Source of the DNA: Trichoplax sp. H2
Taxonomy: Eukaryota
Assembly (NCBI GenBank): GCA_003344405.1
Contig: NOWV01000124.1
Span: 186,001-227,693 of the forward strand
DNA length: 41,693 nucleotides
Direction of reading: 5' to 3'
Under the pieces are notes generated by a model, which made no database searches, was not told the origin of the DNA, and saw only the letters and a list, made by a program, of their open reading frames with translations. Each line of letters opens with the position of its first letter. Within the stretch, counting starts at the first letter, position 1. Positions 9,256 through 36,249 of the stretch are shown piece by piece. The position numbers were made by a program, and so were the translations under genes.

Positions 9256-9867
9256 TCATGAAATAAACCACACGTAAGCTTTTATAAAATAAAATTGTAA
9301 AATTCCAATAATTATTCCACAGATCACATCACTAATATGATGTCTTCCTGATAGTATACGTGAAACAGAGAGTAAAAGTGCCCATAAAACAATCATCACC
9401 TTGTTCATGACAGTAATAAACGAATATTGAAGGAATATACAAGCCATAAGCGATGCTCTTGTAGCATGACCAGAAGGAAATGAATGTCGATCGACATAAC
9501 CAGTTAGGTACATATCATTCCTATTGGTAGCTGGTCTACTACGGCGAAATGTTGCCTTCAAGACAATAATGACTAAAATATCGACCCACCAAGCAGTCAT
9601 AATATTCTGATAGAATGGTTTCATGATTGGATCACGCCAAGAATGATAGAGGAGAGCAGTTACAGCCAGCAGCCAGAGCACGCCATGCCCAGAATATTCC
9701 CACAGTAGTAACACCTTTCTAGTATGGCTACCGGTGAAAAATCCAACATCCCTTTCTGAGCAAATACATAATTTCTTGGAAAATTGACGATCATAATCAA
9801 TAATCTGATGAAAGATTGAATTTTGGCTATTTCCCTTCATCTTTGATTCGGAGGGAGTTTTCGCCAT
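9256..9867 (-). CDS. PAP2-family lipid phosphate phosphatase, PLPP6/PPAPDC2 (polyisoprenoid diphosphate phosphatase)-like, copy A
   Basis: 203 aa with intact catalytic motifs C1 KATFRRSRP, C2 SFPSGH and C3 SRILSGRHHISD, plus the PLPP6/7-type EYSGHGVLW motif and TM segments. Confidence 0.92.
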   Translation of the reverse strand: MAKTPSESKMKGNSQNSIFHQIIDYDRQFSKKLCICSERDVGFFTGSHTRKVLLLWEYSGHGVLWLLAVTALLYHSWRDPIMKPFYQNIMTAWWVDILVIIVLKATFRRSRPATNRNDMYLTGYVDRHSFPSGHATRASLMACIFLQYSFITVMNKVMIVLWALLLSVSRILSGRHHISDVICGIIIGILQFYFIKAYVWFIS

Positions 9868-11362
9868 GTTGGCGTATTACAATACAGCTTGCTTTACCGA
9901 TGTTTAAAATTTCAGTAAGGCTTTCTTAACTTGTTAATGATCTACGTGTAAACGTGGGGTTCAATAATGTTAAAATGATATCAAAATTGGCTAAGAAATT
10001 AATCCCTGATCAGCAACTTCAAAAGCTCTATCAATGTCAACCTATCACTCCACTGAAGTAAGACAATGTTGATATCATAGCTTGTACACCATAGGATAAA
10101 GACTAACTAGCTTTCCTGAGTCTATTACTTTGCTAAGTCTACACTTTAGGACTACTTTAATTTGAAGTGGACGTGGCCAATCTCTTCACTATAACCTGAA
10201 ATTATGGTTTCCAATCAGCATCTCCTTGAAGCTTTTACTCTACTCTTAAATCAGCCAGGACTAGACCGTTCAAATTGGATCTCGATGGCAGTAGCCTCTA
10301 CAACGCATACTCAAAACTAAATCAATTAATTCATGGCATCTTATTTACATAATTGCCTATAGGCAGTTAAGGTTTCCAAAGCATTTCTATGTATTACAAC
10401 GGATGTAAAGACTACACAGAAGCTGCTCTTATATTACCAGGCTGTAACGACTTTAAACACATATATATCTTGGTGTTGGATAGAAAGTTGACGTTGACTT
10501 TATCCATTTCCGAGGCATGCTATCTATTGCTGATCTGAGAAATAAATCGTAATATTTTCTTCAAGGTGAGCAGTTCGAGAATAGAAAGGTAAAGTTTGAA
10601 GGAGAATAAAACATCTTTATGTCTTTATATGCAATGAGATTCTTGCTTTTAGCAACTCGTTATATTTTGGCTACGAAAACTGCAGTAAACATTCCACTAT
10701 TACTACCATATTAAAATTACTGTAGGATATTGAATAAAACTTTGATCTACAAACTGCAATCATTGCGTGCTTATTTCTCCTTGCTAAAGAAATCACCGTC
10801 AAGCTGAGGCAGGATTAAATATCCAGTGTTACGAAGCTTGATGCACTGTGATAAGTGGCTAGAAGTACAGTTGCTGATGATTATTAATTTTTAATCGCAT
10901 TTCCACTGAAGCTACGCTAGAGTTCACTAGTACTAAGTTGTAACAGTTATTAATAAAATATTTAATAACCTAAACTTATCGCTGGACTCCATTTCTATAG
11001 TATAGGAATAAGTTAGTTTTCCTTTACTGATCTCCGGAGTTAGTCGGGAACCTGAAGAGTAGATAGTTTAGTTCAGGAACGATCACGAAAGCGGTTTTGT
11101 GACACCAGTCATATAAGAAGCCGTATCAACACAAGCTTTCTAGATTGGAAATCCCTTTGCCTACTCTAGCTTAGAGACAGCGAATTAGATATATTTCATC
11201 GTTTTATTGTCATACTTCACAAAATTATTTCTTGACGTTATACCAGCGATTGCAAAGCTTACTTGAAGTCCATCTTAGACCAATCAGCATTCCTAATTTA
11301 TCTTCCTTTTGATGCATTTCATCAAGTTGTCCATAGAGTGAAGAATAGCCTATAAGATTGTC

Positions 11363-12058
11363 ATGAGAAAGAGCAACAGATCTACACGGGGGAATGCTCA
11401 ATCTAATGTAAAGTTACAGGATCCGTCCACGATATCGAAGTCAGCCAACCGTTCCCACTCTGCCACTAGAGATGGAGCAAGCAATAGCCTATTAGGAGTA
11501 GTTGTCAGCTCAATCATCTCACTTGATGAGCAATTATCCAATAAATTGTTTATTTCTTCTGGAAAAGACATTGGATTTCTTTCAGGAAGTCTGATAAGAA
11601 AATTTCTGCTTTGGTGTGAATATTCCGGCCATGAAATCCTGTGGTTTATGCTGATATCTCTTTCGCTATGGTTATACCGTCATGATCCTGTTTCATTATC
11701 TTTCAATTTGAATCTTGCCATAGCTTTCGTTTTAGATATTATCATTGTTGTCTGCTTGAAAATGTTATTTCAAAGGCGAAGACCCGAAGCAAATAAGATC
11801 GATATGTATGTTCTAGCGTCGGTAGATCACTATTCTTTTCCATCTGGGCATGCAAGTAGAATAACAGCCTTAGCATGTATATTACTGCACCATCCAGTTC
11901 TACACAACGGTTATAAAATTTATGTATTAGCATGGGTTATTATTGTCTCTTTGTCACGTACGTTAGCTGGAAGACATTTCCTTGGCGATGTTCTATGTGG
12001 TAACTTGATAGGATTACTAGAACATTACTTCACCCAATCATTCCTATGGATTAGTTAG
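11363..12058 (+). CDS. PAP2-family lipid phosphate phosphatase, PLPP6-like, copy B (divergently oriented paralog)
   Basis: 231 aa with C1 KMLFQRRRP, C2 SFPSGH, C3 SRTLAGRHFLGD and EYSGHEILW. Colinear with copy A. Confidence 0.92.
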   Translation: MRKSNRSTRGNAQSNVKLQDPSTISKSANRSHSATRDGASNSLLGVVVSSIISLDEQLSNKLFISSGKDIGFLSGSLIRKFLLWCEYSGHEILWFMLISLSLWLYRHDPVSLSFNLNLAIAFVLDIIIVVCLKMLFQRRRPEANKIDMYVLASVDHYSFPSGHASRITALACILLHHPVLHNGYKIYVLAWVIIVSLSRTLAGRHFLGDVLCGNLIGLLEHYFTQSFLWIS

Positions 12059-16647: not shown

Positions 16648-17525
16648 AGTTGATAGAAAGTCTAAAATGCTTTAGAATTCCTCGATTCATCTGCCTTCTC
16701 GAAACCAAGGCAACCTCCAGGAAGCTAACCTAGACTATAACTGAGTATTCGGAGATTGAAAACTAAAAGAGACCTTTAAAGCAAGGAATCCAGGTGAATC
16801 CATTGTTGGGAATACAGTAGCTTAAAAGCAAAGAGGCTTCTAGAACCAAGGCAATCTTCAGGAAATCTACTGAGGTAAATGTTTAGTAGATTAATTAATT
16901 TAAAAGTAGCAAGAACCTTTAAAACAAACCAATCCGCAATGAAATCAGTATTGCTGAAAATAGAGTACATTAAAGGTAGCAAGAGGCTTCTAATCCAAGG
17001 CAAGCAAAAACAAGCTTAACTACTTTACTTTATTGCAGGAAATGCAGTAGATTGAAAGTGGGAAGGAAGTAAAGAATCATAGCAAGACTTACTGCAAAGT
17101 TCAGCAGATTGAAAGCGGTAGCTTTCAAGCCAGGACAACCTCAAGAAACTTATCTGGACTATTACCGGATATACAATAGATTGAAAGCCGAAGGAGCCTT
17201 CTAATGCATACAGCCGCAAACAATTCCAACTTGACCTGCTACTTATTCAGTAGATTAAAAGCGAAAAGAAGCATTTATGCTACGGCATCTGCAAGGAAAC
17301 TTAAGCAACTGTTACTAGATATAGAATAGATTGAAAGTGGAGAAAGCTTCTAAACCAAAGCAACTGCAAACAAAACTCAGCGAAATCCACCTATAAATTC
17401 GGTAGACTGAAAGCAGGAAGAAGTTTGCAAGCCGGGGCAACAACAAAGAAACTCAACTAGACTAGCGCTTGCTACACAGTAGATTGGAAGTAGAAAAAGC
17501 ATTGAAAGCAAGGCAACGACAAACA
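16648..17525 (+). repeat. Degenerate tandem array A, ~12 units of ~57-82 bp, core AGTAGATTGAAAG...CTTCTAAACCAAGGCAAC, upstream of GNAT gene 1
   Basis: The core recurs at roughly 70-77 bp spacing (for example agtagattgaaag-like words near 17046, 17103, 17175, 17249, 17325, 17401, 17478) and ends ~110 bp before the ATG. Confidence 0.85.
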
Positions 17526-17629
17526 CTTTTATTTATATTGAATAATTTTTAGATTCTGTACTTAGTAAAGCATCTAAAGAGAATCAGGTTTGATCTTGTT
17601 GTAATAGAGCTTGGCGTAAAAATATAGAC

Positions 17630-18496
17630 ATGGAAACGAATAACACAAATTCTGACTTTCGAATTGTGACAGCGTCGGCGAAAGATATGAATTGGATATC
17701 GACAATGACCAAACTTCAGAAATGGAATCCTGGATTGAAAGACGTAGTTGCGTTTCATTTGGTGGATCCAAACGGTTTCTTTATTGGTTTATTGAATGAC
17801 AAACCGATGTGCTGTATTTCTGCTGTCAAGTATCCTAACACTACTTACGGATATATCGGGTGCTATATAGTTGAGGAAAACTATCGAGGCAAAGGTTATG
17901 GGTTACGTATATTTAAACACGCCATGGATTATTTAACGGGATGCTATATTGGACTGGATGCTGTCATTTCTCAGCAAAAAAATTACGAGAAATCCGGATT
18001 TCAATTTGCTCATGCTGTAAGAAGGTACATTGGCATCATACAAAGAAAAAGCCAAATTTGTAAAAATATACGATATGCCAAAGATATCTCAATGGATAAG
18101 ATAGTAGAATATGATGCTCGCCATTCTTTTTGTCAAAGGACACATTTCTTAGCGTCATGGATACATGTAGGAACTGATCAATGTTTAGTTTATATCGAGG
18201 ACGATGGCACTATCAGAGGCCTCGGAGGTATTCGTCTCGCTGTCGATGGTTATAGAGTAGGACCACTATTTGCTGAGACACCCGAAATCGCAGAAAACTT
18301 ACTTTATGCTTTGTGTCCTTCGGAAAGCGATACTAAAGTTGATTTCGATGTCCCTGAGCCTAATTCTGACGGTATATGCCTAGCCGAAAGACTAAATTTA
18401 CAGCATATTGAAGAGAGTAGAAGAATGTATACTGGCGCTAGGACCAAACTTCCATTACGCAATATTTTTGCATTCGCGTGCACGGAACTAGGATAG
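17630..18496 (+). CDS. Double-GNAT acetyltransferase, YitH/HolE-like (GNAT plus C-terminal Acetyltransf_18-type domain), copy 1, intronless
   Basis: 288 aa with WNPG..D...F..VDPNGFF, acetyl-CoA motif A YIVEENYRGKGYG, IGLDAV..QQ.NY.K.GF, second-domain YRVGPLFAE and terminal ELG. Confidence 0.92.
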   Translation: METNNTNSDFRIVTASAKDMNWISTMTKLQKWNPGLKDVVAFHLVDPNGFFIGLLNDKPMCCISAVKYPNTTYGYIGCYIVEENYRGKGYGLRIFKHAMDYLTGCYIGLDAVISQQKNYEKSGFQFAHAVRRYIGIIQRKSQICKNIRYAKDISMDKIVEYDARHSFCQRTHFLASWIHVGTDQCLVYIEDDGTIRGLGGIRLAVDGYRVGPLFAETPEIAENLLYALCPSESDTKVDFDVPEPNSDGICLAERLNLQHIEESRRMYTGARTKLPLRNIFAFACTELG

Positions 18497-18765
18497 ACTA
18501 TATTTTAATTCGCCGTTTTTATGTGACGAATATAAAATATATGGAAAGCTATTATGGCCTTAAGTAGTGATAGTACTATATATAAACAGCATGAAATTAA
18601 AATCTTGTTTGGGATATAAAGTAGTATGCTTAGTATGGGAATGCAGTAGGGGGATTTCTAAAGAATTCCTGAGGAGCTGAAGGAATATCAATCACCATGA
18701 TTTTGCTGATACTTTACGCTGTATATCTTTATCGCCTGTGTATACTAACAAACGTGTTTAACAAG

Positions 18766-18925
18766 TTGATCAATGTTGAGCAGAATAAAAACAATTAAAA
18801 TCAAGCAATCGTAGTACTCATAAATCAACTATTTTCTATCATTATGACTTTCATTGTGATATATCAGGCTACAAAGTAATGAGAGCATGATTATAAGCAT
18901 CCGATAAAAAAGTCAGTATAAAGGC
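18766..18925 (+). pseudogene. Decayed duplicate of the 5' region and start of the piggyBac-derived gene (marks the tandem-duplication breakpoint)
   Basis: ttgatcaatg.tgagcagaat...gactttcattgtgata...aaagtcagtat aligns to 23449-23610. Immediately after it, 18933 onward (tctcttcactca...agaccttg) aligns to 16203 onward. Confidence 0.75.
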
Positions 18926-19764
18926 AGAACTATCTCTTCACTCATTCGGAAGACCTTGGTGATAAAATGAATGAAAGTATTATGCATGCAATGTGTCGTA
19001 GTTTCAGCTAATTACAGTAGTAATTGAAGTACGGTAGCATTAAGGTGTAGAATAATCTACTATACTTATAAGGTAATTTCATAATTGCTGACGATGAAAT
19101 AGTTTACTTTTACTATTCGTATCACATTAGAGATTTGCTTAATTTTATATCTCAGATTTGGAGTTCGACAATTGCGAACCTAAGGGTTATGTATGATAGA
19201 CTGGTAATGCCTAGAAATTATTGGGTGATTGACCTAGTGTCGTACGAGAGAATATAACGCTAAGGGGTTGTAAAATCCAAGCACTACACGATGATATTGG
19301 TTAATTGGCTAAATTGATTATTTTGTCCAGCAAGTGGTGGGTGTGACAATGGATGAAGATGTGCAATATGCTGCATCACCATAGTGATGGATACTGCTGG
19401 ACATCCTGGTTAATTTACATTCCCTATACTGACTGAACACTATTTTATTTTGTTACTGTATGGCTATATCATCGTCGCTGCATATTCATGCAGTACAATA
19501 TAATGGACTATGGACCTCTACAACGCTGAATGAAGTTCAGTAATGCATAGCATATGGAAAAAGTTGGAATTGGCCTCATTCTAGTACTAAATAGTAACGA
19601 ATCTACATCAACAATATTGTATTATTTCATTGGCGTATTTTAATCCTAGCGCTGCTCTAGAAAGATAGGTGTTCGCGGACGTTGGGAGAGAGGGCTGATC
19701 TAGTATTTTGGACTCTTCGTATAACGCCATTAGAGGCTGGTACTAGTAGTCTCTGGCTTGCTAG

Positions 19765-20635
19765 TTGATAGCAAGTCTAAAACGCTTCGACACTCCTTGA
19801 TTCATCTACCCTCTTGAAACCAAGGCAACCTCCAGGAAGACAAGTTGGACTATTACTAAGTATTCGGTAGATTGACAGCTGAAAGAAACTTCTAAAGCAA
19901 GGAAATCCAGGTAAAACCGTTGTTGGAATAGAGTCAATTTAAGGCAAAAAGGCTTCTGGAACCAAGGCAACCTCCATGAAATCTAGCAAGGTAAATTTTC
20001 ATTCGATTTAAAGCAGAAAGAGGCTTCAAAACAAGTCAATCTGCAAAGAAACAGGCATTGCTTAAAATAGAGTAGATCAAAGGTAGCAAGGGGCTTCTAA
20101 TCCAAGGCAACTTCAAACAAGCCCTACTAGTCTACTATAGTGCAGGTAATCTAGTAAATTGAAAGTAGGAAGAGCGTAAAGAAGCCAAGCTAAAATTGCT
20201 AGAAGTGCAGTAGATTGAAAGCACAAGCTTCTAAGCCAAGACAACCCAAGGAAACCCATCTGGACTATTACCTGCTATATGTTACATTAAAAGCAGAAGG
20301 AGGCTTGTAATTATATGCAATCGCAAACAAGCTATACTAGAGCTACTGGATATTTAGTAGATTGAAAGTAAAAGAAGTTTCTATGCTAAGGTAACTGCAA
20401 GGAAACCCAAACAGACTATTACCAAATATAGAATAAATTGAAAAACAGAAAGAGCTTCTTTACCAAGGCAACAGCAAATAAAGTCAGCGAGACCCACTGA
20501 TAAAATTCATTAGATTGAAAGCAGGAAGAAGTTTCTAAACCAGGGTAATACCAAAGAAACCAACTAGACTAGTCCTTGATACAGAGTAGATTGAAAGTAG
20601 AAAAAGCTTCTAAACCAAAGTAACTACAACCACTT
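19765..20635 (+). repeat. Degenerate tandem array B, ~12 units, unit-by-unit paralog of array A, upstream of GNAT gene 2
   Basis: Core at ~19866, 19932, 20001, 20071, 20153, 20209, 20281, 20356, 20432, 20509 and 20585. Confidence 0.85.
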
Positions 20636-20740
20636 CGCTTTGTGCCCACTAATTGTAGATATTGTAATCAGTGAAGCAGTAAAAGGGAATCTGGTTTGAT
20701 CTTGCTGAAATAGAGCTTGGCGTAAAAAATAAATAGAGAC

Positions 20741-21607
20741 ATGGAAACGAATAACACAAATTCTGACTTTCAAATCGTGACAGCATCAGCGGAAGATGTG
20801 AACTGGATGTCGACAATGTCCGAACGTGAGAAATGGAATCCTGGATTGAAAGACGCAATCGCATTTCAACTAGTGGATCCAAATGGTTTCTTCATTGGTT
20901 TATTGAATGGTAAACCGGTGTGTTGTATCGCTGCTGTCAAGTATCCTAATACTACTTGCGGATATATCGGGCGTTATATAGTTGAGGAAAACCATCGCGG
21001 CAAAGGTTATGGCTTACGTATATTTAAACACGCCATGGAACATTTAACTGGATGTTGTATTGGACTGGATGCTGTTCCTTCTCAGCAGAAAAATTACAAG
21101 AAATTTGGATTTCAATATGCTACTGCTGTTAAAAGGTATATTGGCGTCATACAAAGAAAAGCCCAAATTTGTAAAAATATACGACGCGCCAAAGATATCT
21201 CAATGGATAAGTTGATAGAATATGATGCTCGCCATTTTCCTTGTCAAAGGACACATTTCTTAGCGTCATGGATACATGTAGGAACTGATCAATGTTTAGT
21301 TTATATCGAGGACGATGGCACTATCAAAGGCCTTGGAGGTATTCGCCTTGGTGTCGATGGTTATAGGGTAGGACCACTATTTGCTGAGACACCCGAAATC
21401 GCAGAAAACTTACTTTACGCTTTGTGTCCTTCGGAAAGCGACACTAAAGTTGATTTCGATATTCCTGAACCTAATTCTGACGGTATACTTCTAGCTGAAA
21501 GATTAAATTTGCAATATTTTGGAGAGAGTGGGAGAATGTATACTGGTGTTATACCCAAACTACCTTTATCCAATATTTTTGCATTTGCAAGTGCGGAACT
21601 AGGATAG
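20741..21607 (+). CDS. Double-GNAT acetyltransferase, YitH/HolE-like, copy 2, intronless
   Basis: 288 aa with the same motifs as copy 1. About 47 aa differences by hand count (~84% identity) and no indels. Confidence 0.92.
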   Translation: METNNTNSDFQIVTASAEDVNWMSTMSEREKWNPGLKDAIAFQLVDPNGFFIGLLNGKPVCCIAAVKYPNTTCGYIGRYIVEENHRGKGYGLRIFKHAMEHLTGCCIGLDAVPSQQKNYKKFGFQYATAVKRYIGVIQRKAQICKNIRRAKDISMDKLIEYDARHFPCQRTHFLASWIHVGTDQCLVYIEDDGTIKGLGGIRLGVDGYRVGPLFAETPEIAENLLYALCPSESDTKVDFDIPEPNSDGILLAERLNLQYFGESGRMYTGVIPKLPLSNIFAFASAELG

Positions 21608-23567
21608 ACTTTATTTTAGTCCGACGTTATTATTTAACGAATACAAATTGTGTGTATAGCCTTAAGTAGTGATAATATTGTTTGTAAATATGATTTTAGC
21701 TTTGGTCTTGGTCTTAACTGGTTTTAATACTGAACTTGCATGTATTAATCTTCAACACAAATACTTGTATTTCACCTTTGCCAGTATATGGGCCAGCACG
21801 AATGCTATCATTTACAATCTATTTGTTCATATTATTTCTTTGCATCATTCCAATATTACTGGTAATGAAGAGTTAAAAGACGAGCAAAAACGCCTGCATT
21901 AGAAAAATTATTTGCTGTTAATGCACGCATCGCTTTAGTCCATAACGGTTTCAAGCATCAATCGATACACGATATAATTTTATCATACCGTTGCGATGCC
22001 AAATTAAGTGAAACTATTGTATTGCTGCAATTTAACCTATTCGTGTTAAATTAATTTAGAAAGGAAATTTGAAACTTGTCTTAATCAACTTTTCAAAGAT
22101 CCTATGCATACTTCATAATATAAGAAGTCGAGACATCGTAAGCACTTATTCGTATTAATTTAATCTATACCACTTCTTTTCTAATACACTGAATATGTGA
22201 TTAAATTAAACTGTGACTAAAGCGGTAGTATTAGCGTTATTAGATGCATCATTTTAAGTTCCTGATTATTACTGCAATCCTTTACAATTTATACGATGAT
22301 AGAACTGTTGATAGTATGTTTAAAACATATTCTGCAAGAAAAGAAAGCTAGTTACAATTGGACATCCATGATCAATATATTTAATATCTTTTACGATTGG
22401 AATGAAATATAAATTTTTACTTCCGGACTGGAAAATTACCACTAACTTCTAGACTAAAACTTGCAGCTCTGTAATCCGCTGTTTGCATGCTGTTCAGTCG
22501 ATTATTAAATGCAATAGATGGCCTGTAATTTCACACCAAAGACTAAGGAAAAAGTTCTTACTACTAAAAGTCTTCTATACTACGTTGTGCTCGTATTCCA
22601 TTTATGGATGGATGTAAGCAATCAGTACGGTTGATTTTAGGTTTTAAAATTTGTGTAACATTAGTCTATACTAGAGATATTGATATTTTACAAGGCATTT
22701 TGCTGTTCCTTTAATATTTCAATTCAATATGACAATACGCTAATAATTTGGACACCATACAGCCAAATCAAGCAAACAGTGGCATAACAGTAATTATTTA
22801 TTTGATCGCCTCGTAATCTCATTGCTGCGTAGACCAATTACGAATAAGTATGAAAACTAGACAGAAGTAAATAAAATCTATAATAAACTGCAAATACAGG
22901 CTCCGGCGTTTAAGTAGAGGTAGCCAACTTCAGAGTTATTTAATACCCAGGGTAGCTGATTTCTTGGATTACTTCCCATATCTTTCATTTCCACATATAA
23001 AGTAAGGTAGTTGTCTTATGTTGAGATGAATTACGATACTGACAAGTGACGACTGGATATTAAGAGAATTTCGATAATTAAAATTTAATATAATGGATCA
23101 CTATATTGCACCAAAAATAGTCCATTGCACTAGTATTATCCAAGTGATAGTCGTAGAATAAATTTGTTAAAGATGTATTTCTATTATTATTCCCGTTGTT
23201 CTAATTTAGTTGCCAATATATCTGCCTATAAATTCGTAAAAGAAAAGTCTAAAAAATCGATTCCTCTGTCAATATCATGAGTAGGACTTGCTAGAAATCA
23301 GATATTAATGGCTCCAAAATAAAATTAGCAATAGCATTTTAAAATGGCCCATCTATTTTATAGCTACGCATTAATCACAAATTAGAATTGGAAATTTTTG
23401 ACTAATTTAGATAGTTGAAATGCACCTAAATCAGTGTTCATTCAAAAATTGATCAATGCTGAGCAGAATTAAAATTAAAATCATGCAATCTTAACATCCA
23501 TAAAATAAAGTCAACTATTCTCTATCACTGGGACTTTCATTGTGATAGATTAGGGCTATAAAGTAAA

Positions 23568-24881
23568 ATGGCAGATAGTGATAGCAGCCAAGGAGAAAGT
23601 CAGTATGAAGACGCATATCCTGATAGTAAACAGATCAAAATTATGAAAAGTAATGAGAATCATTGTGTTCACGAGAAAAGCCTTAATCATGATCTTCTTT
23701 CCATATCACCACACTTACCTTGGCGATACGATGAATGGCTACCAGCAAATTGGTCAGAAGCCTTGCCACATCCGTTTAAAGGGTATCCTGGGATAAAATA
23801 CGATACTACTTTTTATGATGCAGTCCATTACTTTCAGTTATTTGTGCCCAACAGTCTATTTGATCAATTCGTTATGGCTACGAATCAGTTTGTGTCTCAA
23901 TTACTTGAACAGCAAAATGGCAATGGAGAAATTATTAAGCAATTAAAGCAGTTATGGGTCCCAACAACGATGATCGAAATGAAGAAATTTATTGGCTTGC
24001 TACTTTTAATGGGTATCATTGAGAAACCAAATGTTTTTCATTACTGGTCTCTTGATCCGCTTTACGAAACACCGCTATTCCAATCGATCATGACTAAGAA
24101 ACGCTTTATACTTTTATTGCGATGTCTACGCTTTAATGATGATCAGCATCGAAATGATAAAGACGAAATACTATGCGATCGGTTATGTAACATCAGGCCC
24201 TTACTTGATTATTTTAATCAAAAATTTAGATATGTCTATGATGCCGAACAGGATATTGCTCTTCATACATTAACTATTAAGGTTAAAAGAAAGCATATTT
24301 GTGAAGAAACAGCATCTCACGAAACGTTAGTCAATATAAAATTGCATTATTTACGTGAAAGTAAATCAGGCTATATGTTTCAATTTCAAGTATGCAATGA
24401 CGATAGTAAAACTTGTACTAGAAAGGTTTTCTCTATACCTACGGAAACTGAGAAATGGAATTTTAAGGAGAAATTAGCTTTATCTCTTCTGAAACCCTTT
24501 CTCGATCAGGGCTACAACGTTTATATGGATCAACATTTTACTTCCATTCCGCTTTTTGATTATCTTTATCGACGTAAAACCAATGCTTGCGGTATCATTT
24601 TACCTCAAAATCTACCGCCTACAATTGAAAATCTTTTGAATCAAAGTCAAGAAGAAATGATCGCTTATCGTTCTGGTCCCTTACTTTGTCTCAAGTGGAG
24701 AAAAGAAGAGCCATTATGTATTCTTTCTAGCCTTCATAGTGATCTAACTACACAACAAGTTAATCATCAAGATCAGCCTAAAAAATCCAACGATATGCCC
24801 AATCATGATTTGAATAAGAAGAAAATTACGGCACTTCTTCGCTATGATCAAAACATGGATAATGCTTCCAAACAAGATCTG
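23568..24881 (+). CDS. piggyBac-derived protein (PGBD4-like, DDE_Tnp_1_7 domain), coding exon 1 of 3
   Basis: piggyBac motifs ATNQF, EMKKFIGLLLLMGI, YWS, MTKKRF..LLRCLRFND, IRPLLD, GYNVYMDQHFTS, TNACG, LKW. Phase-0 donor CTG|GTTAGT at 24882; the supplied ORF reads on into the intron. Confidence 0.88.
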
Positions 24882-25033
24882 GTTAGTTCAGCATACTTGA
24901 GAGTATTTTTGTAACCTAATTTTCAGTCAGATATTGCTGAATTATTTCACATATAAATCTTGACTAGTTTAATTTAGAGCAGTATTTTCCATTTGTCGTA
25001 GCATCATCTGTCGTCAATTCCATTCTATTTTAG

Positions 25034-25186
25034 AGTATGAAATTACAACACGTGTCTGGAAAAGCTGTTAAATTAGGCAAGAAATTGGGCATCCAATTGC
25101 TCCAAGTATGCATGCGAAACGCCTTCATTATCTTTCAGAATGATAGATCTTACCTTGGCAAATCTTTTCTACAATTTCAACATGAT
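25034..25186 (+). CDS. piggyBac-derived protein, coding exon 2 (51 codons; absent from the ORF track)
   Basis: Acceptor ttctattttag| and donor |GTAAGG. Translates SMKLQHVSGKAVKLGKKLGIQLLQVCMRNAFIIFQNDRSYLGKSFLQFQHD, matching the piggyBac K..KKL...LL.....NA.I...F segment. Confidence 0.82.
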
Positions 25187-25788
25187 GTAAGGTTATTTTT
25201 GGGGTTGTGAATTTATAAAACCAATATGTAGTTATTGTGAGTCTGCCCTAGTTGCCTTGTAAATAATAGCATTATGGTAAGAAAACCAAATAGAATTTCT
25301 GTCTTTGGCTTAGGATATATTTTAAAAATTCACATATACATGAATGAACATGGTTTTAATACCCAGTTCATCGTCTAGCTGCTAAAAGGATAAAAAGTTC
25401 CGATCAGCTATTCGACATTCCCTTGTAGGAATATAGCGATCCAATTGAATATTAATTTAATAAAAAATAATAATATTTTAATTTAATGGAAATAATTACC
25501 AACAGGCACAAGATACTATGAGATTGCAATGCCTGTACTTGTAGAAATTAAAATTTTCCATAATTTATTGATGATACCATAGTTGCACTAGTCTCTGGTT
25601 GTATAGTTTCGCTTCTTCATTGTATCATTAATCGGCTATAAAATGATTCTGTCGTATGCACGATAATCCAACAATATCTGCTAGTGTGGACGAAGAACAA
25701 ACTCAACTTACATGCTGTACCTTCCGATCAACTGGAAATGAAGATATAACAGCATTAGTAACTGTATTTATTTGCCTTTGTTTATTAG

Positions 25789-26034
25789 GTGATTACTGAC
25801 CTACTATTTTGCGAGGAAAAAATGGAAATGGAAAAGAAAGAGGCTACTATTCGTTTGACAGGTCGTCATTTTATACAGCATTTAAAACCGTCCAAGTTTG
25901 CTTGTAGAGTCTGCTGTAGGAAAGGTACATTGAAATATGTCTATACTATTTGCTCTATATGCCCCAATGATATTGGCTTATGTTTGGATCCTTGTTTTCG
26001 ACTATTTCATACTATTTTGCGCTATTGGGAGTGA
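25789..26034 (+). CDS. piggyBac-derived protein, coding exon 3: C-terminal cysteine-rich zinc-finger domain
   Basis: Acceptor tttgtttattag|GTG. Encodes RLTGRHF...CRVC...CSIC...LC..PCF..FH, the piggyBac CRD (zf-Tnp_2-like) pattern, ending in TGA. Confidence 0.88.
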   Translation: MITDLLFCEEKMEMEKKEATIRLTGRHFIQHLKPSKFACRVCCRKGTLKYVYTICSICPNDIGLCLDPCFRLFHTILRYWE

Positions 26035-26048
26035 ATACCTGTGTAAGG

Positions 26049-27530
26049 CTTCAAATTTCAAATTGGCTTGTAAATCTGCAATATGAAAGTAATATTTAAA
26101 TATGCCAATTTGGATTCTTCAGTTTGTCCAAAAAATTATGGATTAGGTTTTAGCCGCTTCTTTTCGACCTTTTTATACCATTTTTCCATATCGAAATGAA
26201 AAAGTTCAAATTAGCTTGTAGAGTCTTCAGTAGAAAAGGCATATTAAAAGATGTTGGCAACATTATTTATTCATTTTGTTGAAATAATATTAGCTGACAC
26301 TTACATCCTTACTTTACACTTATCATACCGTTTTGGACTTTTGGAATTGATTAATTAATAGTTTTATATAGCAGTTCAAACTCCAGATTTGCTTGTAGGA
26401 TCTGTAGTTGGAAAGCTATGTTGAAATGCGTCTTTATTAGTTTGCTTGTCCAGTTTGTCTAAAACAATATAACGATATTCTTGCTTTCGACATTTTCGTA
26501 CTTTTTTGGATGATTTAACTCAGAGTTTTATGCAGTAGTTCAATTCGAAATTGGCTTGTGGAGTCTGCGGTAGGAAAGAAATATAATTATGCTCATACTG
26601 CTGTGTTTATTCAGCTTGATCAAGCGATCTTAGCTATATATAGGAAAGATGCATTGAAATGTATCCAAATTACCTTGCTTGGACAGTTTGTCTAAACAAT
26701 ATTAATTTAGGTTTATACCTTTGCTTTCGATATTTTCATACTGTTTTGAGTGATATAATGTAAACTTTTATCCGACAGTACTATTCGAAATCGGCTAGTA
26801 GAATGTACGTAGGAAAGAGACATAAATATGTCTACATACTACTGTACTTGTTTCGTTTTTCCAAGTGATGTTAGCTATACGTGTGTATCCTTACTTTCGG
26901 TCCTTCCATACTTTTGGCTTTGACAATGAGTAATTAACGTCCTATATGGCACTGATACTCAAAACTTGCTTGTTGAATCTATGGTCTAGTAGAATATGTT
27001 GTTACCATTTGTTCCGTTTGTCCCAGTGATAAGAGCTTATGTTAAAATCATTGCTTTCGAACTAGTCGCGTTCTTTGCCTTACTACTACTCAGTTCATCC
27101 AATGCGATCTAGTACAGTAAAATATTGTAAATTATGTTTATTGATGAAATAAAATGATGTGCTATACGATCGTTTCAGTTGAACCTAAGCATAATAAACA
27201 TTCAATACGTCGAAACATTTTACCTATTTGAAAATCTTAGAAATTTTGATTCGCTTGAATACGACAATTTAAAGTTAAAAAGATGGTACGAATCTTCATT
27301 GAATATGATGGTTATGAATTGGGAGGCATTTCAAATACCTCTCAATGCATTTACGCTATTCTAGGAGTAAACTAAAGAGTTCGAAAAATCTATAACTATG
27401 GAAATAGCAAGCATTCCAATTGATGGCATCAGGCATAGAATTCTTTAGCCATACCGTCCATACTACTGTATTTGCTCCAGTTATATGAGCTTATGTTCAG
27501 ATCCTTGCTTTTCAATTGATCGTCTTCTTT
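26049..27530 (+). repeat. ~7-8 degenerate tandem copies (~115-175 bp) of the zinc-finger coding sequence of exon 3
   Basis: Variants of ttgcttgtagagtctgctgtaggaaag and ccttgttttcgactatttcatact recur at ~26060, 26210, 26388, 26550, 26640, 26790, 26965 and (partially) ~27455-27530. All copies contain stops or frameshifts. Confidence 0.8.
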
Positions 27531-27875
27531 TTCCTGCTGGTATTCAGTTTTTATTCAATATGATCAAGTACAGAAATATTGTAAAATTATGTTTATTGAC
27601 GAAATAAAAATGATGTGCTGTATGATCGCTTCTGTTGAAGCAATACATAGTAAATATTTAATATTTCAAAAATATTTTACCTATATAAGAAATGTTAGAA
27701 ACAGAGTCAACCTTGATTTGCATGAATAGTAGAGTCTATAAAACAAAAGATGATACTAATCTTTTTTGAAAATGGTTAGTCATGAATTTGGAAGTATTTT
27801 TGTACACCTCTAATGATATTCATGCCATTACAAATTATATTATTCGAAAAATTAAAAACGATGAAAGCAAATATC
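27030..27875 (+). repeat. Two-copy ~455-bp degenerate direct duplication
   Basis: gagcttatgtt...agtacag..aaatattgtaaa.ttatgtttattga.gaaataaaa.tgatgtgct occurs at 27033 and 27487. Similarity extends to ttcgaaaaat at ~27380 and ~27843. Confidence 0.8.
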
Positions 27876-28629
27876 CAGGCACCTTTAATTAAAGTACTAT
27901 ACATTCTTCGCGATGTAAGCCATCGCAAAATATAGTACTAGAAAAATGAGCAATTAAGGAAATAACAAGTATCTCAGCTACCTCTAATTACATTTACTGT
28001 GATTCACGCCAACATAAATTATAGTGTTAAAAAATTAATAAACTAAAGAAACAACAGGTATCCCGGTCGATAGCTTGAGGCATAGAATTCTTTAATACGG
28101 TTCGTAGAGAAATGAATACTTTAGCGGCATTTTCAGCTAAATGGCCATTTTGATTGTAGTCATTTACATACATACAGGTTGTCTTCTTGCAACTCTTGTA
28201 ATTTATCTCGTAATTTAGTGCTAGCCTCAAATGTTGGATAAACTCTAGGCATGAACAGAATTAAAACACATAGCTTTAAATTTATTTTAAATCCTTAGTC
28301 ACTCATTGATTGACCTTTTAGCCGAACGTAATCGAAACTTTAGTAGCGCCCCAATTTTTCCTTATGGTAACTAATACAACGATTATAAATCAATTAAAAT
28401 AATACTATTACAAATGATTTAATGCAGTGCTAACATGAACAAATTTTAAAAACTTTTTTAATTCCTTACACCTAAACGATTTCATTAAAATAAATTATTT
28501 TCTAATAACTGAATTGCATATAAGATTAAAGTGATTGTAACGAATTGCAGTAGTAGTGTTTTGAAAGTAACATATTAATATGAATATAAGCTATAGATAT
28601 GGTACAAATATCGGTTAAACCTAATAGAG

Positions 28630-29005
28630 TATTTATAGATGAAGTGGTCGAAGAGATTATATCGAATTGGAAAGTACAGATATCCATCTTTTGAAGGTTA
28701 CATTTTACAGCGGATTTCCATTCAATGATTTACTGTTGGAATTAAATCAGAATAGTTTTTAATCCTTCAACAGGGTCGTTAAAAGGTTATGTGGCCAGAG
28801 AGATTGTAGCAAATTGGAAGGTTATAGACGTCGGCAATTTAAAGATTAGATTTTCCAACGGATTGCTATCGCATGGTCCAAAGTTGAAGTTCAATCAGGA
28901 TGGTTTTAATCCTTGAACACGGTTGTTAAAAACTTATGAAATCGGAAATTGTAGCAAATTGGAAAGTATAGATGTCAATATTCTGCAGATGACATTTTCC
29001 AAGAT
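28630..29005 (+). repeat. Degenerate tandem repeat, ~140-bp unit x ~2.5
   Basis: aattggaa(a/g)g at ~28665, 28812 and 28957; aatcag.at.gttttt?aatcctt.aaca.gg at ~28745 and ~28893. Confidence 0.7.
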
Positions 29006-29224
29006 AATTATTGGAACCAAGATTACCAATATAACGAAAAGCTATTCTTATAGTGCTATAAAAGAATATCTTAACTGTTTAGTTACACTTAAATCCTTTA
29101 ATATCAGAGAACTCTCTTGGTATTATGACGTAGAAGTGTATATTGGAAAAAAATTGCAGTAATTAATTGAGTTATTCTATTTGCAATGGCTTGTCTGTAT
29201 TTAGAATTGATCTCCAGTCTCGAC

Positions 29225-29490
29225 ACATTGTTGTTGTTAAGAGTATATTTAGCAGACTAACAATAATTTTAATCTATTTTATACTTCGGTCTCAATATAT
29301 TATTGTTAAGGATCTGTTAAGCAGACTAAGTAAACATTTAATCTACTTTATACTTCAGCCTCGATATACTTTTGCTAAGGACTATTAAGCAGAATAAGAG
29401 ACCTTTTAATCTATTTTATACTTCAGCCTAGACGTGGTGTTGTTAAGATTCTATTAAGCAAACTAAGAAAACTTTTAATCTATTTTATAC
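29225..29490 (+). repeat. Tandem repeat, 68-69-bp unit x 4
   Basis: g(t/c)taag at 29236, 29305, 29374 and 29442; each unit contains taagcagactaag and tttaatctattttatacttc variants. Confidence 0.88.
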
Positions 29491-30214
29491 GACTAGCTAT
29501 TATGCATAATGGCTAGTTATTGAGACTTTTAGAATAATATATGACACGGTATAGATGGTAAACTGACCACCATCCTTAAGAAAGGTGTCTGTGCTGTATT
29601 AAAATTTTTCGATAGCATCATTGTTTATCACTCAGCTACGTGGAATTGTTGACAGGAAGCTATGAAATATTACAAAATACGCATTATCACATTATATATT
29701 ATCCAATTAGGCTTCTATCGTAGAATCCAATTTATCAATCTCCATTCAATACTTTTACCATAGAAAACATCTGCTTCAATGTAGAAATAACAAAACTGAG
29801 TCACTGTTTGGAAAATAGTCAATAGCAGGAATGTACTTTTCTCTAATTTTCACCCACGCCTAACTATCCAATAGAGTCAATTAGGAGGTTGGACTTGAGA
29901 TGCATCCACTTGAATTATTTTTTAACTTGATGTTGTTATTGATTATATGATACTGAGAAGAAATCTTTATGTCATCGAAGACGCGGCATGAATCTAAAAC
30001 ATAAACAAGGAATAGCTATATACAACTAAAGTGTTCCGATTGTAGTAAAATAGGAAAAACTTTTCAATTTTGTATTGTCATATTTTGAATACATAGAGAG
30101 AAGGAAGGTGAAAAGACCCGTCTAGAACGATACAAGATATTCTTTGTAATTCAGTAAAAGAATGATTTTGAATACAATCGTATTTCATTTTATTCATAAT
30201 TACTTAGGCCTATA

Positions 30215-31410
30215 ATCAATAGAGGTTCAAATTTTAATATCTTCTAAATGTATCTAAAGATGACGATTTGATTACTTTTAGCTTAAGATATGGATTAGAA
30301 TAGGTTAGATTATAATTAATTTAATGACAGTCATGTCTAAGTTACTCATAATTTTCAGCCTTAAAATCAATTGACAGTCGAGCATAACCATTCTTTACGT
30401 TAGCTTATGGACAACAACTGGAAACTTTTAGTTTAATACCTGGATAGAAGGATGATGTAATAAACTTATAACAATCATTTTTAGCTTATTTAGAATAATT
30501 TAGCTTTAAAATAAAATGAATTGAAATTCAAACAAAATAGTGTACTCTAAAATAAATTGGCCATTAGATAACTTGAACGCCTAAACTCAAACATGGATAA
30601 AAAAACTATATAATTAATTTATAGACAACTTTGTTTATCTGAATCGTAATTGTTGATCCTTAAAATTCATTGAAATTTGAATTGAAAATGGCCTCCAAAA
30701 TGAATTAGTTCGTATCGCATTTAAAGTTGTGAGCTTCAAACCAGGATAAAAGATTAATATGAATAATTTAAGTACAACGTTAGTTATTTGATTCCTATTC
30801 AGGTTTAAAATTGACTGAAATTTAAATTTAAGAATGGCTTCTAAAATAAATTCGTTCTAATATGATTTGAAGTTCTGAGCTTTAAACATGCATAATATTG
30901 TCAGTAATAGAAATACAACCTTGATCATTTAATTCGTAGTCAAGTTTGAAATTAATTGGAATTTGAGTTCAATAATGGATACTAAAAATATGAATTCTTG
31001 TGTGATTATATATATACTATGCCTGAGCTGCTAATATAGATAAAATGATGACATTAATATTCTATATACAATCTTGCTCGTTTGACTCGTCATCAAGGCT
31101 AAAATTAATAGAAATTTGAGTTCGGTAGTAGACTTGTAAATAAATTATTTCTGATATGGTTTAAAGCTTTGGCTAAAGTTTAATATGGAGAAAAAACAAA
31201 TATTAATAATCAAAGTTCAATTTTATTCATTAGATTTACCATTAAAATAAAACAAACTTTGAACTCAGCAGAATACAATAAAGTAATTTACTTCTTTGAT
31301 GACTTTAAGACCTTGAATTCCAGAGTATACAAAAACACGATATAATCAATCCAAATACAATCTTACCCATTTAATTTATTATCATTTGCGTTTAAATTCA
31401 ATTGAAAGGC
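30215..31410 (+). repeat. Highly degenerate tandem repeat, ~145-bp unit x ~8
   Basis: aaaatRaatt / tgaaatttgaRtt / ggataaaa / tacaac motifs recur at about 30549, 30697, 30843, 30984, 31138 and 31280. Confidence 0.7.
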
Positions 31411-32723
31411 TATCTTTAATCCACCCTAAATTAGCATTATTCAATTGTTATTCGACTGGCTTTAAAAATAAAGCCAAAAATGAATACTTAGCCATGCAAC
31501 TAAAATAGATTATTTTTAGCTACTAATTTTTTTAATCCGTTTAACTAATCATGCATTAAAAAATGAAATATTATGGTAGACTGGAAGAACTCAAATTGGC
31601 TAAAATTAGGTCATCATGGCTAAAACCTGTTATCCTGTCACCTGGTCCACTACCCAATTTATCAGGGGTTAATGACTATCTAATAGATACTTATGCTTAC
31701 TATTGATAAAGAAGTAAAAACCTTTAACTTCACTGGATAATGTTTACAAGTAGGAAATACATCTAAGCCAAAAGTACCGTGTGCGACTAGATTACACTCA
31801 AATGTTGACGAAATATATTACTAAATGCCCCATGCATAACATAGTTTCTTGTTTCTGCCTTTTTTAAATGGTTTTATCCTCTCATAAATTGATATAGATG
31901 TATTAATCTGATTTTAACTAATTTTTCAATTAATGACGATCCAAACTTTATGCTTTCTTAGTTTAATTAGCAAACGGCCATTATAATGGAATAAATGAAA
32001 TAAACCGATGTAGATCTTTAGTATAGACAAATTATAATTCTAATATTAGCTTTTCGGTCCATCTATTATTCAAACCCCACAAATGCATTTTATCTATAGT
32101 AAATGATATCAATCAAGGCATCAAAAGCGTGAAAATTATTAAAGAGCAGAAAAAATCCAGCTAAGAATATTTTTACAATAGTTTAAGCTGATTAGTTTAA
32201 AAATCCAATACGTAAAAGATTGAACATGAATTGCGAGAACAGGAAATCAGTCTTAACAGATAGGTATCTAAATTATCGATTCATCCGGTCTGGATTCAAA
32301 GTAAAAATTTAGAGACAAGTTAAGTCTATATGGCCTAGATGCTTATTTAATCAAATTGTAAAGGAGATGACTATCTATATTACCACACATGGTAGAAGTT
32401 TGTTTAGAAATGATGTAGAGACATTTTGCGAAATAGACCAGACTAGACTATGTAGACATACTTAGCATCTCAATTGTGATGAACTTTGTAAACTCACTGT
32501 AAGAAGGAAGAGCTATACACAAGCAAGAAATTAGTCTTTAATAAATGTCTATCTTTAGCTATGTGCTCCTTCAGTTCACTCTAGTCTACATATTTTCTTA
32601 CTGAAAATGAACAAATAGTTTGAACTAGTTCGAAGGTAAACTAATTTTTATCCGTCAACTTTGCGACAATAAAGAAGAACACTAATATAAACATTTAGAG
32701 ACTTATTGTTAACGCTGAAATAA

Positions 32724-32762: not shown

Positions 32763-35244
32763 TTCCATTTTAATGTAAATATTCAATTGGCGAATGTTAC
32801 CCTTTCGGCCGAGAAAACTTGTATATTTTTTCTGTCATTGCTTTCGTCTAGATATTGATTGGATAGGAAAGAATCAGTCGATGCTATTATCACGCAACGA
32901 TGAAAGATTTTTATTCCTTTGTTCTATATTTCTATTTAAATATTTATTACCTACCTATTTTATTCACGACTTAATGAAAGATTGATGTCAATACTAAGTA
33001 AATTTGAATATTGACTTGTAAAGCTATAGTAAAATATTCTATCCAGATGCCACGAAGGGTCAACGATCTACTGGATAGAAAAGGATATCATTTATTTTTT
33101 ATTATCACCATATGGCAAAATTAGACGGTTGCCGAATGCAATGATCGCTTTGTCATAGAATTGAATTGGTAGAAATTAAAAAATTTTTTAAGGCTACAAA
33201 TTTATGTTACTCTCGAGAATGACAGAACTATCGTTTTATCATTCCCATATGTCAAAATAAGTCATCGTAAATTACTTTGCATGTGAATTGGATTTATAGA
33301 GCCAGAGCTTTAAATTATTTGTTCTTTACGAAATAATGCAGTAATTTTGCTACTGGTAATTTTTGAAGACGTGCAGTAACTGTTGGTATAAGAATTGGAT
33401 ACCTTTACCAATTTCAAATTTGTATAGCATCGGAGAATAAAAGAACATCCTTTAATATCCGATAATATTATTGAGTTCTCACCTATTATAACTAGGTTGC
33501 ACTCTTGTTATTCAAAACTTTACTATCACAGCAATGACTTGAATAATATTGTTAACCTATTAAGATATTTTGATCATTTTTAAATCAAAGCCATCATAGG
33601 CAAGCATGAATTACCATCCGATAACGATGGAAGATATTGAGATATCTGTGGTACCGACTGACTTTGATTGATATTATTATCTTTATCAAGGAGTCGGAAC
33701 AAAATAATTATGGGATATAGATGCTTTATCATGATCTATGATTACTAACACATCAAAAGCTAAATATGTAACTTTTGAATCGATCACCATTATTATTGAA
33801 GGAACAAGGTTATCATCAAGATATTGTTACGATCATCATCGGATAGTTATACTTCCTCTTCCTCGTTATCTATCAATTAATTGATTATGTTATCGAGATA
33901 TAGCTATGAATACAATTTTCTCTATTGTGGATTTTTCCTTATTGAAACAAATTATGTCTTGCTATATATTATTGATTTAAATCACAATGTATGGAATATA
34001 AAAACGTATACAAGTACAATTGATATATAATTTACTCCTACGCTGACATCATTGATACTTCTCATTTTCAAGTTGAAATTGATGAAATTCGCATCGGTAT
34101 GGAAAATTTATTCGTTTTTAATAATTGCTAACGATTTAATTCATAAAAGTAGATCATGATTATTCTTGATACCGACAATAAGTAATTTTAACTTTAAAAT
34201 GAATAAAAAATTGTTCATTCATCCCTTGCCTATAAAGAGACGCAGCTGAAATTATTTAGGATTATTTTTCACCGGATTTAACCTGTTAAACTATTTCTAT
34301 CATAAATACCAAAAAAAGGTTTCCTTTTTTGATTCGATTTCCTACCAATTTTTACCTTACCAGGATGACCATAGTTGTAGTGGAATTTATAGAACAAACC
34401 ATAAGCTGCATCATCCGGTTACCTTATTCTCCCAAAGTTACTAAGCGGTGTTAGTGACTTTTTAAAGGTTTATTTAGGAAATAACGTCGGGTCGATATCG
34501 ATCAGTTTGAAGATTCCAAGTTTATCCCTCTTCCTTTGGAAAAATCATCTTCTATGATACATCTTACGATTTGCAACAGCAATTCTTTTCATCTATTTTA
34601 TCATTGGGGTGTTAAAAAGTTGTAGATCCATACATTATAAACTTGAACACGAGGTAAGCGTATAGTGGTTTAAATTGATTGAGCGTGGCGATATATTAAC
34701 GTCTCAGAATATCGGTGCTTTATACCATATTATTAGTAAATCACGGACTTCTATATTAAACTGCTCAATCTCTTAAATATGATGTTTGGTGTCGCTCTAA
34801 TTAGAAATTGATTGAAGCTAGATATTTTTATTTACGGTGACAACGACTTGAAAGCTTATTTCTATCAACTTTGTCGTCCATATAACAGTTATTAATAACA
34901 TCGGAAGTGAAAGCTAGCGTAAATTACTCTACCAAAATCTGTTTTCATCCCTAAAATTTGTCAACACCATTTACAAATATACCAGTTTGATCCGGTATTG
35001 GTTTGATATTTACAAAATAAAGAATTCCTCAGTCTTCAATATTAAAAAACCTATCTTCATTTGCTATCCATTCTACTATATTCTAAAATTTAATTATTGT
35101 TTAGCTAAATTAGTTCTTCATGAAATATTTGCCAAGAAAGAATAATTTTAATTTTATGTTCTTTAATGTAGAAAATTAACGAGAAAATCATCAAATTCTT
35201 TTGCCTCATATAACCGAAATCGAAAAGAAAATTACTTTGAAGAG

Positions 35245-36249
35245 ATGGAAGAACTAGCAACATTAAAGATGAATGATATAAAACCGACTTCACCGCTAGT
35301 TGCAGTTAGTAATTATACCATCAATTCTACAATCTATATATCACTCTTGCCCGATAGTAATATTTATGCTATCATTACTGGTTTAACTCTCTTAACCAAT
35401 GTTAGCATGTTATGTCTCGTCATTAAAGAACGAAAACTACATACCATGTCGAATTGGATATTAGCAAGTATGTTTTGTGCAGGCATTGCTTTTGCAATTG
35501 CTTATTTATTACCTCGTTGGGTAATATTCTTCAAGTGGAACCTGTATCATTCCTTTGCGTGCTTAATTTTACCCATGACTGGCTCAGGATTAATCATCAA
35601 TTTCAATTTGCACTTGGCGTTAGTAAGTTTAGATCGTTATTTCTGTTTTACTTCGCCCTTTACATATCAAAGACCACAATCACGTGTTATAGCCAAGTTA
35701 GCCATAGCTTCTGTCTGGGTTTTAAGTTCTTTCACAGCTTACATACCACTCTTTACTTTCCTTATTCCATCACCAGGAAAATGTGCAGCCCAACAACGTA
35801 GTGAAATCTATTATAATTATTTATGTACAGTCTTTGTCATCCTCTTTTTCTTGCCTTTAGCTGTTTTAATCGTTACTTATTCAAGAATATTATGGATTGT
35901 TAATAATCATACCCAAAGACGCCAAGAAGGCATCGTACGCTCAAATTCAGTGACGATTTCCGCATTTCACCGTAATCTTCGAGCGATCAAATATATGATA
36001 GCTTTAATCGGTTTATTTATTCTCTTTTGGTTACCTTACATCATCCTCTTCCTAGTTTACTATGCAACATCCATTGCCAGTGTTCACACATTAATACTTA
36101 TTCGCAATTTTCAATACTTGGCCTTTTCCTATCCAGCTGTCAACCCAATCTTGTATGCTTATTTCACACCATGTATGCGCCATGTTATGAAAAAAAAGTT
36201 ATCTAGGTCAATTCAATCTATAGCTCAAATATTATCCAACATAGCATAA
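35245..36249 (+). CDS. Class A (rhodopsin-like) GPCR, amine/adenosine-receptor-like fold, intronless, orphan
   Basis: 334 aa with 7 TM, LHTMSN (ICL1), TM3 C...SLDRY, TM4 W, TM5 FFLP, TM6 FWLPY and TM7 NPILY. Confidence 0.93.
   Translation: MEELATLKMNDIKPTSPLVAVSNYTINSTIYISLLPDSNIYAIITGLTLLTNVSMLCLVIKERKLHTMSNWILASMFCAGIAFAIAYLLPRWVIFFKWNLYHSFACLILPMTGSGLIINFNLHLALVSLDRYFCFTSPFTYQRPQSRVIAKLAIASVWVLSSFTAYIPLFTFLIPSPGKCAAQQRSEIYYNYLCTVFVILFFLPLAVLIVTYSRILWIVNNHTQRRQEGIVRSNSVTISAFHRNLRAIKYMIALIGLFILFWLPYIILFLVYYATSIASVHTLILIRNFQYLAFSYPAVNPILYAYFTPCMRHVMKKKLSRSIQSIAQILSNIA

Follow-up and report, generated by a model that had tools for sequence, protein, structure and literature searches.

The DNA that we analyzed, called the window here, is a stretch of 41,693 nt from the placozoan Trichoplax sp. 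H2 (NCBI GenBank assembly GCA_003344405.1, contig NOWV01000124.1, positions 186,001 to 227,693 of the forward strand). Between positions 23568 and 26034 of its forward strand lies a gene of the piggyBac transposase family. An original prediction, made from the sequence alone, had described this gene as split by two phase-0 GT-AG introns, deprived of its active site, and free of TTAA-flanked terminal inverted repeats (TIRs), and had seen in these features the profile of a transposase co-opted by its host. We examined the structure of the gene, its active site, its relatives, its surroundings, and the signs of selection on it.

The three-exon model held good in its coordinates, its splice sites, its 570-amino-acid frame, and its Pfam domains (Table 1). 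Exon 1 is contained in an open reading frame (ORF) of 450 codons in frame +3 (23562 to 24914), begins with the ATG at 23568, three codons downstream of an in-frame TAA, and ends at the donor CTG/GTTAGT. After splicing, the coding sequence of 1713 nt is open throughout and specifies 570 amino acids and a stop codon. When the spliced protein was aligned by MAFFT with P0003, an uninterrupted homolog of 557 amino acids, the alignment ran over both exon junctions without a gap. Both of the shorter exons were also matched on their own by tblastn, exon 2 by P0006 (25052 to 25189, E = 1.3e-6) and exon 3 by P0003 (E = 3.7e-12). The first plus-strand AATAAA past the stop codon is at 27148, 1.1 kb downstream; there are 147 such motifs in the AT-rich window against 130.6 expected, a frequency near chance, and we therefore did not set the 3′ end of the gene by this motif.

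Database entries of 240 to 767 amino acids and of 768 to 2190 amino acids included no protein identical to the piggyBac-derived frame, and the locus therefore seems to be unannotated as a protein of such sizes. The larger size range likewise contained no longer fused form, which is weak evidence, and neither an added SCAN domain nor an added coiled-coil domain was found on the protein.

Assignment to the piggyBac family is far past chance, as judged by the Pfam E values: DDE_Tnp_1_7 (PF13843) matched amino acids 84 to 432 in exon 1 with an E value of 6.4e-59 (200.4 bits, cutoff 22.4), and zf-Tnp_2 (PF13842) matched exon 3 with an E value of 1e-9 (39.2 bits, cutoff 24). The C-terminal domain retains its full set of seven Cys/His ligands, in the pattern C-x2-C-x12-C-x2-C-x6-C-x3-C-x4-H, and their spacing is the same as in P0003, P0009, and P0014. 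Exon 1 was modeled with AlphaFold2 from an alignment of 50 rows, and the model had a mean predicted local distance difference test score of 80.9 and a predicted template modeling score of 0.80, with disorder only in residues 1 to 50. In a Foldseek search, the solved structures that this model matched best were piggyBat (9c0f_C; E = 2.9e-21, template modeling [TM] score of 0.61) and Trichoplusia ni piggyBac (6x67_C; E = 2.5e-16, TM score of 0.58). The sequence alone matched piggyBat 9c0f in phmmer with an E value of 3.6e-33. The disordered N terminus (residues 1 to 50, 23568 to 23720) contains an acidic, Ser-rich word, DSDSS...QYEDAYPD, which is common to this protein and its relative P0001 and has echoes in P0002 and P0005. 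PMC9499001 concerns the disordered N-terminal region of piggyBac.

We then placed the catalytic residues, which in T. ni piggyBac are numbered 268, 346, 447, and 450 (PMC5381638), by phmmer against piggyBat 9c0f, by MAFFT with 5 homologs, and by MAFFT with 153 homologs (154 rows including this gene). The readings of the original prediction were confirmed by phmmer and MAFFT alike: the first Asp is replaced by His233, the second is kept as Asp321, and the third is replaced by Ser434, so that, in the alignment with 153 homologs, only the second position has an intact Asp. At the first site, SLDE of piggyBat aligns with ALHT (within the motif IALHTL), and at the second, YMDN aligns with YMDQ (within VYMDQHF). 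At the third, the protein reads NMDNASKQDL where the homologs have GGVD. The residues adjoining the active site are also changed, from DES to H-TL, from DN to DQ, and from GGV to DNA.

Over the 154 aligned rows, the triad was D-D-D in 98 and H-D-S in only 2, this gene and P0001. The 17 residues around His233 (AEQDIALHTLTIKVKRK) are identical in P0001. The "fourth" Asp is kept, as Asp437. Three residues before Ser434, at the first Gly of GGVD, the protein has Asp431, and P0001 has Glu there; these two are the only rows of the 154 with an acidic residue in that column, which holds Gly in 86 of the 153 other rows.

Close relatives of the gene are few. A search of 1.84 billion representative proteins gave 7217 matches at an E value of 1e-3 or below, only two of which were close, P0001 and P0002, both known only as exon-1 ORFs. 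P0001 has an open frame and matches the full 438 residues of exon 1 at 66% identity (635 bits). Its identity is lowest in the disordered N terminus (22 of 50 residues) and amounts to 124 of 175 in residues 51 to 225, 86 of 120 in 226 to 345, 40 of 64 in 346 to 410, and 17 of 26 in 411 to 438. P0002 is 40% identical (271 bits) and has the triad N/N/D, and the next-best match scored 200 bits. In both P0001 and P0002, which are prokaryote-style ORF calls, the homology stops precisely where exon 1 ends, and each ORF continues with a Val codon (GTN), as expected if a GT donor lay at the same phase-0 site and was read through. A metagenome scan with an alignment of these three clade members found 8 loci of 25 to 38% identity among at least 592 pattern matches.

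A tree of 46 sequences was built by a quick run of IQ-TREE from exon 1 and 45 of the 57 top matches (those of at least 420 amino acids; the 12 shorter ones were excluded). It joined this gene to P0001 with a support of 100 and added P0002 with a support of 97, and this trio grouped with the D-D-D proteins P0003 and P0008, again with a support of 97. The stem leading to this gene and P0001 measured 1.56 changes per site, and the two tips measured 0.18 and 0.36. Such a long stem followed by short tips would fit rapid change when the gene was domesticated and constraint from then on.

Neither TIRs nor TTAA-CCC ends were present to a distance of at least 5 kb from the gene in either direction, in agreement with the original prediction. 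Inverted repeats over 17000 to 32000 and over 21600 to 28500 were only weak AT-rich pairs of 71 to 94% complementarity, none of them at the gene borders. The window holds 9 TTAACCY sites where 12 were expected, a frequency no different from chance. The nearest of these, at 22032 (plus strand) and 31666 (minus strand), were considered as possible element ends and rejected; they are separated by 9.6 kb and are not linked by an inverted repeat.

As a positive control, we used L001, a metagenome contig carrying the closest intact relative for which DNA was obtained. The top match of the same repeat finder in L001 was a 40-nt pair, TTAACCCGTTAACTGCCA... and ...TGGCAGTTAAAGGGTTAA, and these TTAACCC...GGGTTAA repeats bracket an element of 2.4 kb (1260 to 3624). 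Its transposase is a single D-D-D ORF of 603 amino acids that is 34% identical to the protein of the window; identities of 34 to 35% were found for P0003 and the L001 ORF. Near the gene there was no match to the L001 TIR, the sole match at no more than 4 mismatches being at 8740, about 15 kb away. L001 also has a 311-amino-acid ORF upstream of its complete piggyBac-like element.

Searches of the window by tblastn with P0003 and P0006 found no second piggyBac-like coding sequence in its 41.7 kb. In sequencing run X1, the word depth was 100 for a contig internal to the gene and 92 and 90.4 for contigs reaching unique flanks. These values are not a copy number, but the similar depth inside the gene and in its flanks is a weak hint against many identical copies.

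Several kinds of evidence bear on selection. We simulated neutral change in exon 1 (substitutions only, base composition of the window, kappa of 2) until protein identity had fallen to the 66% seen with P0001. None of 1000 runs remained free of stop codons; the mean was 11.5 stops and the minimum 2, at an average of 0.19 substitutions per site.

We also compared the window with the near-identical contigs of runs X1, X5, and X13, of which X1 spans the whole of the region compared. Six coding differences were listed (23615, 23756, 23837, 24449, 25042, and 25108), and all six were synonymous changes at third positions, an outcome with a chance probability of 1.6e-4 given that 23% of possible changes are synonymous at a kappa of 2. 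The lists cover 2 of the 4 differences in X5 record 21 (inside exon 1), 20 of the 21 in X1 record 8, and 7 of the 8 in X13 record 16. Of the differences from X1, 3 fell within the 1712 coding bases and 31 within the 3377 noncoding bases, a density about five times higher in noncoding DNA (Fisher P = 0.0015; counting the single unlisted difference as coding would give 4 and 30, with P = 0.0056).

A further line of evidence is internal to the locus. When the window was searched by tblastn with exon 3, five partial copies of its zinc-finger part, all of them decayed, were found in a row downstream of the gene (Table 1). They form direct-repeat family D7, with 61 to 75% nucleotide identity, and are matched by neither P0003 nor P0006. 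The four longer copies contain stops or gaps, and Cys codons are visibly lost in copies 1 and 3. These copies serve as an internal control, since the real exon 3 has kept all seven ligands while its neighbors decayed. Contigs of run X11 over 25986 to 26552 take in three of the decayed copies, which may reflect a long 3′ untranslated region or carryover of DNA. The full identity with P0001 in the 17 residues around His233 points in the same direction. Taken as proxies distinct from a formal Ka/Ks, the simulation, the synonymous variants, and the variant density are signs of purifying selection on the gene.

Because of its gene model, the substitutions in its triad, their conservation in P0001, the absence of transposon ends, and the signs of selection, we think that the gene is probably a domesticated placozoan piggyBac transposase, immobile, under purifying selection, and noncatalytic, that acts via binding to DNA or chromatin. 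The profile of a host-co-opted gene given in the original prediction is thus supported in each of the parts examined, with an intact frame and introns, two of three catalytic Asp residues lost, zinc-finger ligands kept, and no TIRs. In the sequence of events that we envisage, a piggyBac transposase would have lost two catalytic Asp residues and its transposon ends and become a host gene. Its product would no longer cut or join DNA; it might instead be a DNA- or chromatin-binding factor, working alone or as an architectural partner through its cysteine-rich domain and its transposase scaffold.

Several points weigh against this reading. No contig of runs X1, X5, X11, and X13 contains a spliced joint. 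The X1 contigs continue through both introns, as DNA would. Run X11 is on record as RNA, although the library may contain DNA, and has contigs only at 22000 to 22328 and 25986 to 26552; none of these falls on the first two exons or on the introns, and the run indicates neither splicing nor silence. We took P0001 to be an ortholog because of its similarity, the common substitutions, and the common exon end, and this is an assumption. The unlisted differences from the sequencing runs could be nonsynonymous. Three low-depth X1 contigs, only 90 to 95% alike, match parts of exon 1 and then continue into unlike sequence, with loose ends at 23467 and 24228; they could stem from a second copy that has diverged or from a different strain, or they could be chimeric. 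Lastly, a genome survey of Trichoplax adhaerens by Wang et al. (2010) reports 16 piggyBac matches totaling 14,676 bp (PMC2871265).

The last two of these points would suit a mobile or recently mobile piggyBac family, of which the gene would be a nonautonomous or repressor-type copy with its frame kept by selection at the level of the transposon. We regard such a family as unlikely. The search that recovered the ends of L001 found none for this gene over at least 5 kb to each side, its frame is broken by two introns, and its close relatives are only two among 1.84 billion proteins. The incomplete triad, moreover, is common to this gene and P0001 at 66% identity, and it has therefore persisted for long without catalysis. 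The word depth of X1 adds its weak hint in the same direction. According to the T. adhaerens survey, which counts 139 matches to transposable elements (TEs) in total, complete ORFs occur only in hAT and mariner elements, no TE is found among 14,572 expressed sequence tags, and all TEs are judged inactive (PMC2871265). The present locus may itself be among the 16 piggyBac matches, and to that extent the suggestion of the original prediction that the gene might be undescribed in this lineage is weakened; it stands insofar as the literature on piggyBac in Trichoplax and on domesticated piggyBac or piggyBac-derived (PGBD) genes in placozoans yielded no description of the gene. That the locus is instead a dead relic in neutral drift, its frame open by luck, would agree with the loss of two catalytic residues, the lack of transcript evidence among the contigs examined, and the lack of an identical annotated protein in the two size ranges. 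We think this very improbable, in view of the 1000 neutral simulations, none of them stop free at the divergence of P0001, the six synonymous variants out of six, the roughly fivefold-lower variant density than in flanks and introns, the intact splice sites, and the seven zinc ligands kept beside duplicated fragments that have decayed.

A different question is whether a domesticated protein might still be catalytic, with a remodeled metal site formed by His233, Asp321, and a relocated third carboxylate (Asp431, with Glu as its counterpart in P0001) and/or Asp437. Some nucleases of the RNase H fold bind metal through a His, as in the DDH/DEDH site of Argonaute. Asp321 and Asp437 are kept, the segment around His233 is fully conserved in P0001, and the acidic residue in column 431 is confined to the two H-D-S proteins. 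Human PGBD5 has also been reported to mobilize DNA with noncanonical aspartates (PMC5381638). We nevertheless give this possibility little credence, since any single mutation in the triad is reported to abolish the activity of T. ni piggyBac in vitro (PMC6143343, citing Mitra 2008), the His replaces the first carboxylate and not the third, the residues adjoining the site have been remodeled as well, and the triad of the related P0002 is likewise incomplete but of another composition.

Table 1. Positions of the features discussed in the text, numbered from the first letter of the window
Feature	Positions	Strand	Remarks
Exon 1	23568-24881	+	438 codons; acidic/Ser-rich disordered N terminus, helical N domain, RNase H-like core of piggyBac-type transposase
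Intron 1	24882-25033	+	152 nt; GT..AG; phase 0; acceptor ...TTTTAG/AGT
Exon 2	25034-25186	+	51 codons; end of transposase core; donor GAT/GTAAGG
Intron 2	25187-25788	+	602 nt; GT..AG; phase 0; acceptor ...TTATTAG/GTG
Exon 3	25789-26034	+	81 codons and TGA (26032-26034); Cys/His-rich domain at 25903-26010
His233	24264-24266 (CAT)	+	First catalytic Asp column; Asp in 137 of 153 other rows; P0001 and P0036 alone share the His
Asp321	24528-24530 (GAT)	+	Second catalytic Asp, kept; Asp in 134 of 153 other rows
Ser434	24867-24869 (TCC)	+	Third catalytic Asp column; Asp in 109 and gaps in 30 of 153 other rows; P0001 and P0117 alone share the Ser
Five decayed partial duplicates of the exon 3 zinc-finger region	26196-26336, 26382-26435, 26545-26751, 26959-27060, 27470-27517	+	E = 8e-7 to 0.14 in tblastn search of the window with exon 3
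Two tandem intronless GNAT genes (Acetyltransf_18)	17594-18496, 20726-21607		84% identical; flanks also duplicated, 3.1-kb spacing
Arrays of degenerate units of about 75/150 nt, families D2-D6	17000-17550, 19800-20650		Core CAGTAGATTGAAAG; upstream of each GNAT copy
Rhodopsin-family receptor ORF, single exon	1653-2672	-	
Rhodopsin-family receptor ORF, single exon	35167-36249	+	
PAP2 phosphatase-like ORF	9256-9876	-	Divergent pair with next
PAP2 phosphatase-like ORF	11342-12058	+	Divergent pair with preceding
Tandem repeat	29234-29490		69-nt unit; 3.7 copies; 79% matches

Elsewhere in the window (Table 1), the frame at 20741 to 21604 in the second GNAT gene is identical to a protein on record, and its tandem paralog is named TRIADDRAFT_60070 of T. 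adhaerens. The best named relatives of the GNAT proteins outside Trichoplax are bacterial, at about 40% identity (Kiloniella, Spartinivicinus, and Maridesulfovibrio among them), which makes the pair a candidate for an old acquisition from bacteria followed by duplication. The receptor and phosphatase-like ORFs are accompanied by one TPR ORF.

How does the gene compare with known piggyBac systems? Bouallègue et al. (2017) defined PGBD genes by single copy number, orthologous position, and Ka/Ks, and they tabulated incomplete triads for PGBD1, PGBD2, and PGBD5 (PMC5381638). In Paramecium, Bischerour et al. (2018) described PgmL proteins that lack the triad, keep a cysteine-rich domain, and are essential architectural partners of PiggyMac (PMC6143343). 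Mammalian PGBD1 and PGBD2 and Paramecium PgmL1 to PgmL5 resemble the present gene in kind: they have a piggyBac core with an incomplete D-D-D triad, they are without transposon ends, and they are under purifying selection. The cysteine-rich domain is kept, as here, in PGBD2 and the PgmL proteins, and for all of these proteins an architectural or DNA-binding role has been proposed over catalysis (PMC5381638, PMC6143343). Unlike them, this gene is placozoan, has its own H-D-S pattern, and bears no added SCAN or coiled-coil domain. As judged by the tree, it would have arisen separately, from a lineage of piggyBac-like elements near P0003 and P0008. PGBD5, found from cephalochordates to humans, is similarly ancient, intron containing, and without the canonical triad (PMC3902484, PMC5381638), but it has five to seven introns and no cysteine-rich domain (PMC5381638), whereas this gene has two introns and an intact one.

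The active elements (T. ni piggyBac 6x67/6x68, piggyBat 9c0f, and L001) share the fold and domain order of this protein. Their transposases carry a D-D-D triad and are encoded by a single ORF without interruption, and the elements are bounded by TTAA-flanked CCC...GGG inverted repeats; this gene lacks all three features. Its nearest kin are P0001, which has the same H/D/S residues and exon-1 boundary, and the triad-defective P0002 (N/N/D), which has the same boundary; the three form one clade.

The Asp or Glu that is unique to the H-D-S pair and stands beside the lost third Asp poses the question of whether the site is dead or rebuilt. Were it rebuilt around His233, Asp321, and Asp431/Glu, which we doubt, the protein might carry out host-controlled DNA cleavage or rearrangement in placozoans. 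Domesticated piggyBac genes are reported from vertebrates, cephalochordates, and ciliates (PMC5381638). If our preferred reading, a domesticated and noncatalytic host gene, is true, Placozoa, an early-branching animal phylum, would be added to these as a separately domesticated, intron-bearing, and triad-defective case. It would be a transposase that survives by a change of job in a genome whose transposons have all been judged dead (PMC2871265).

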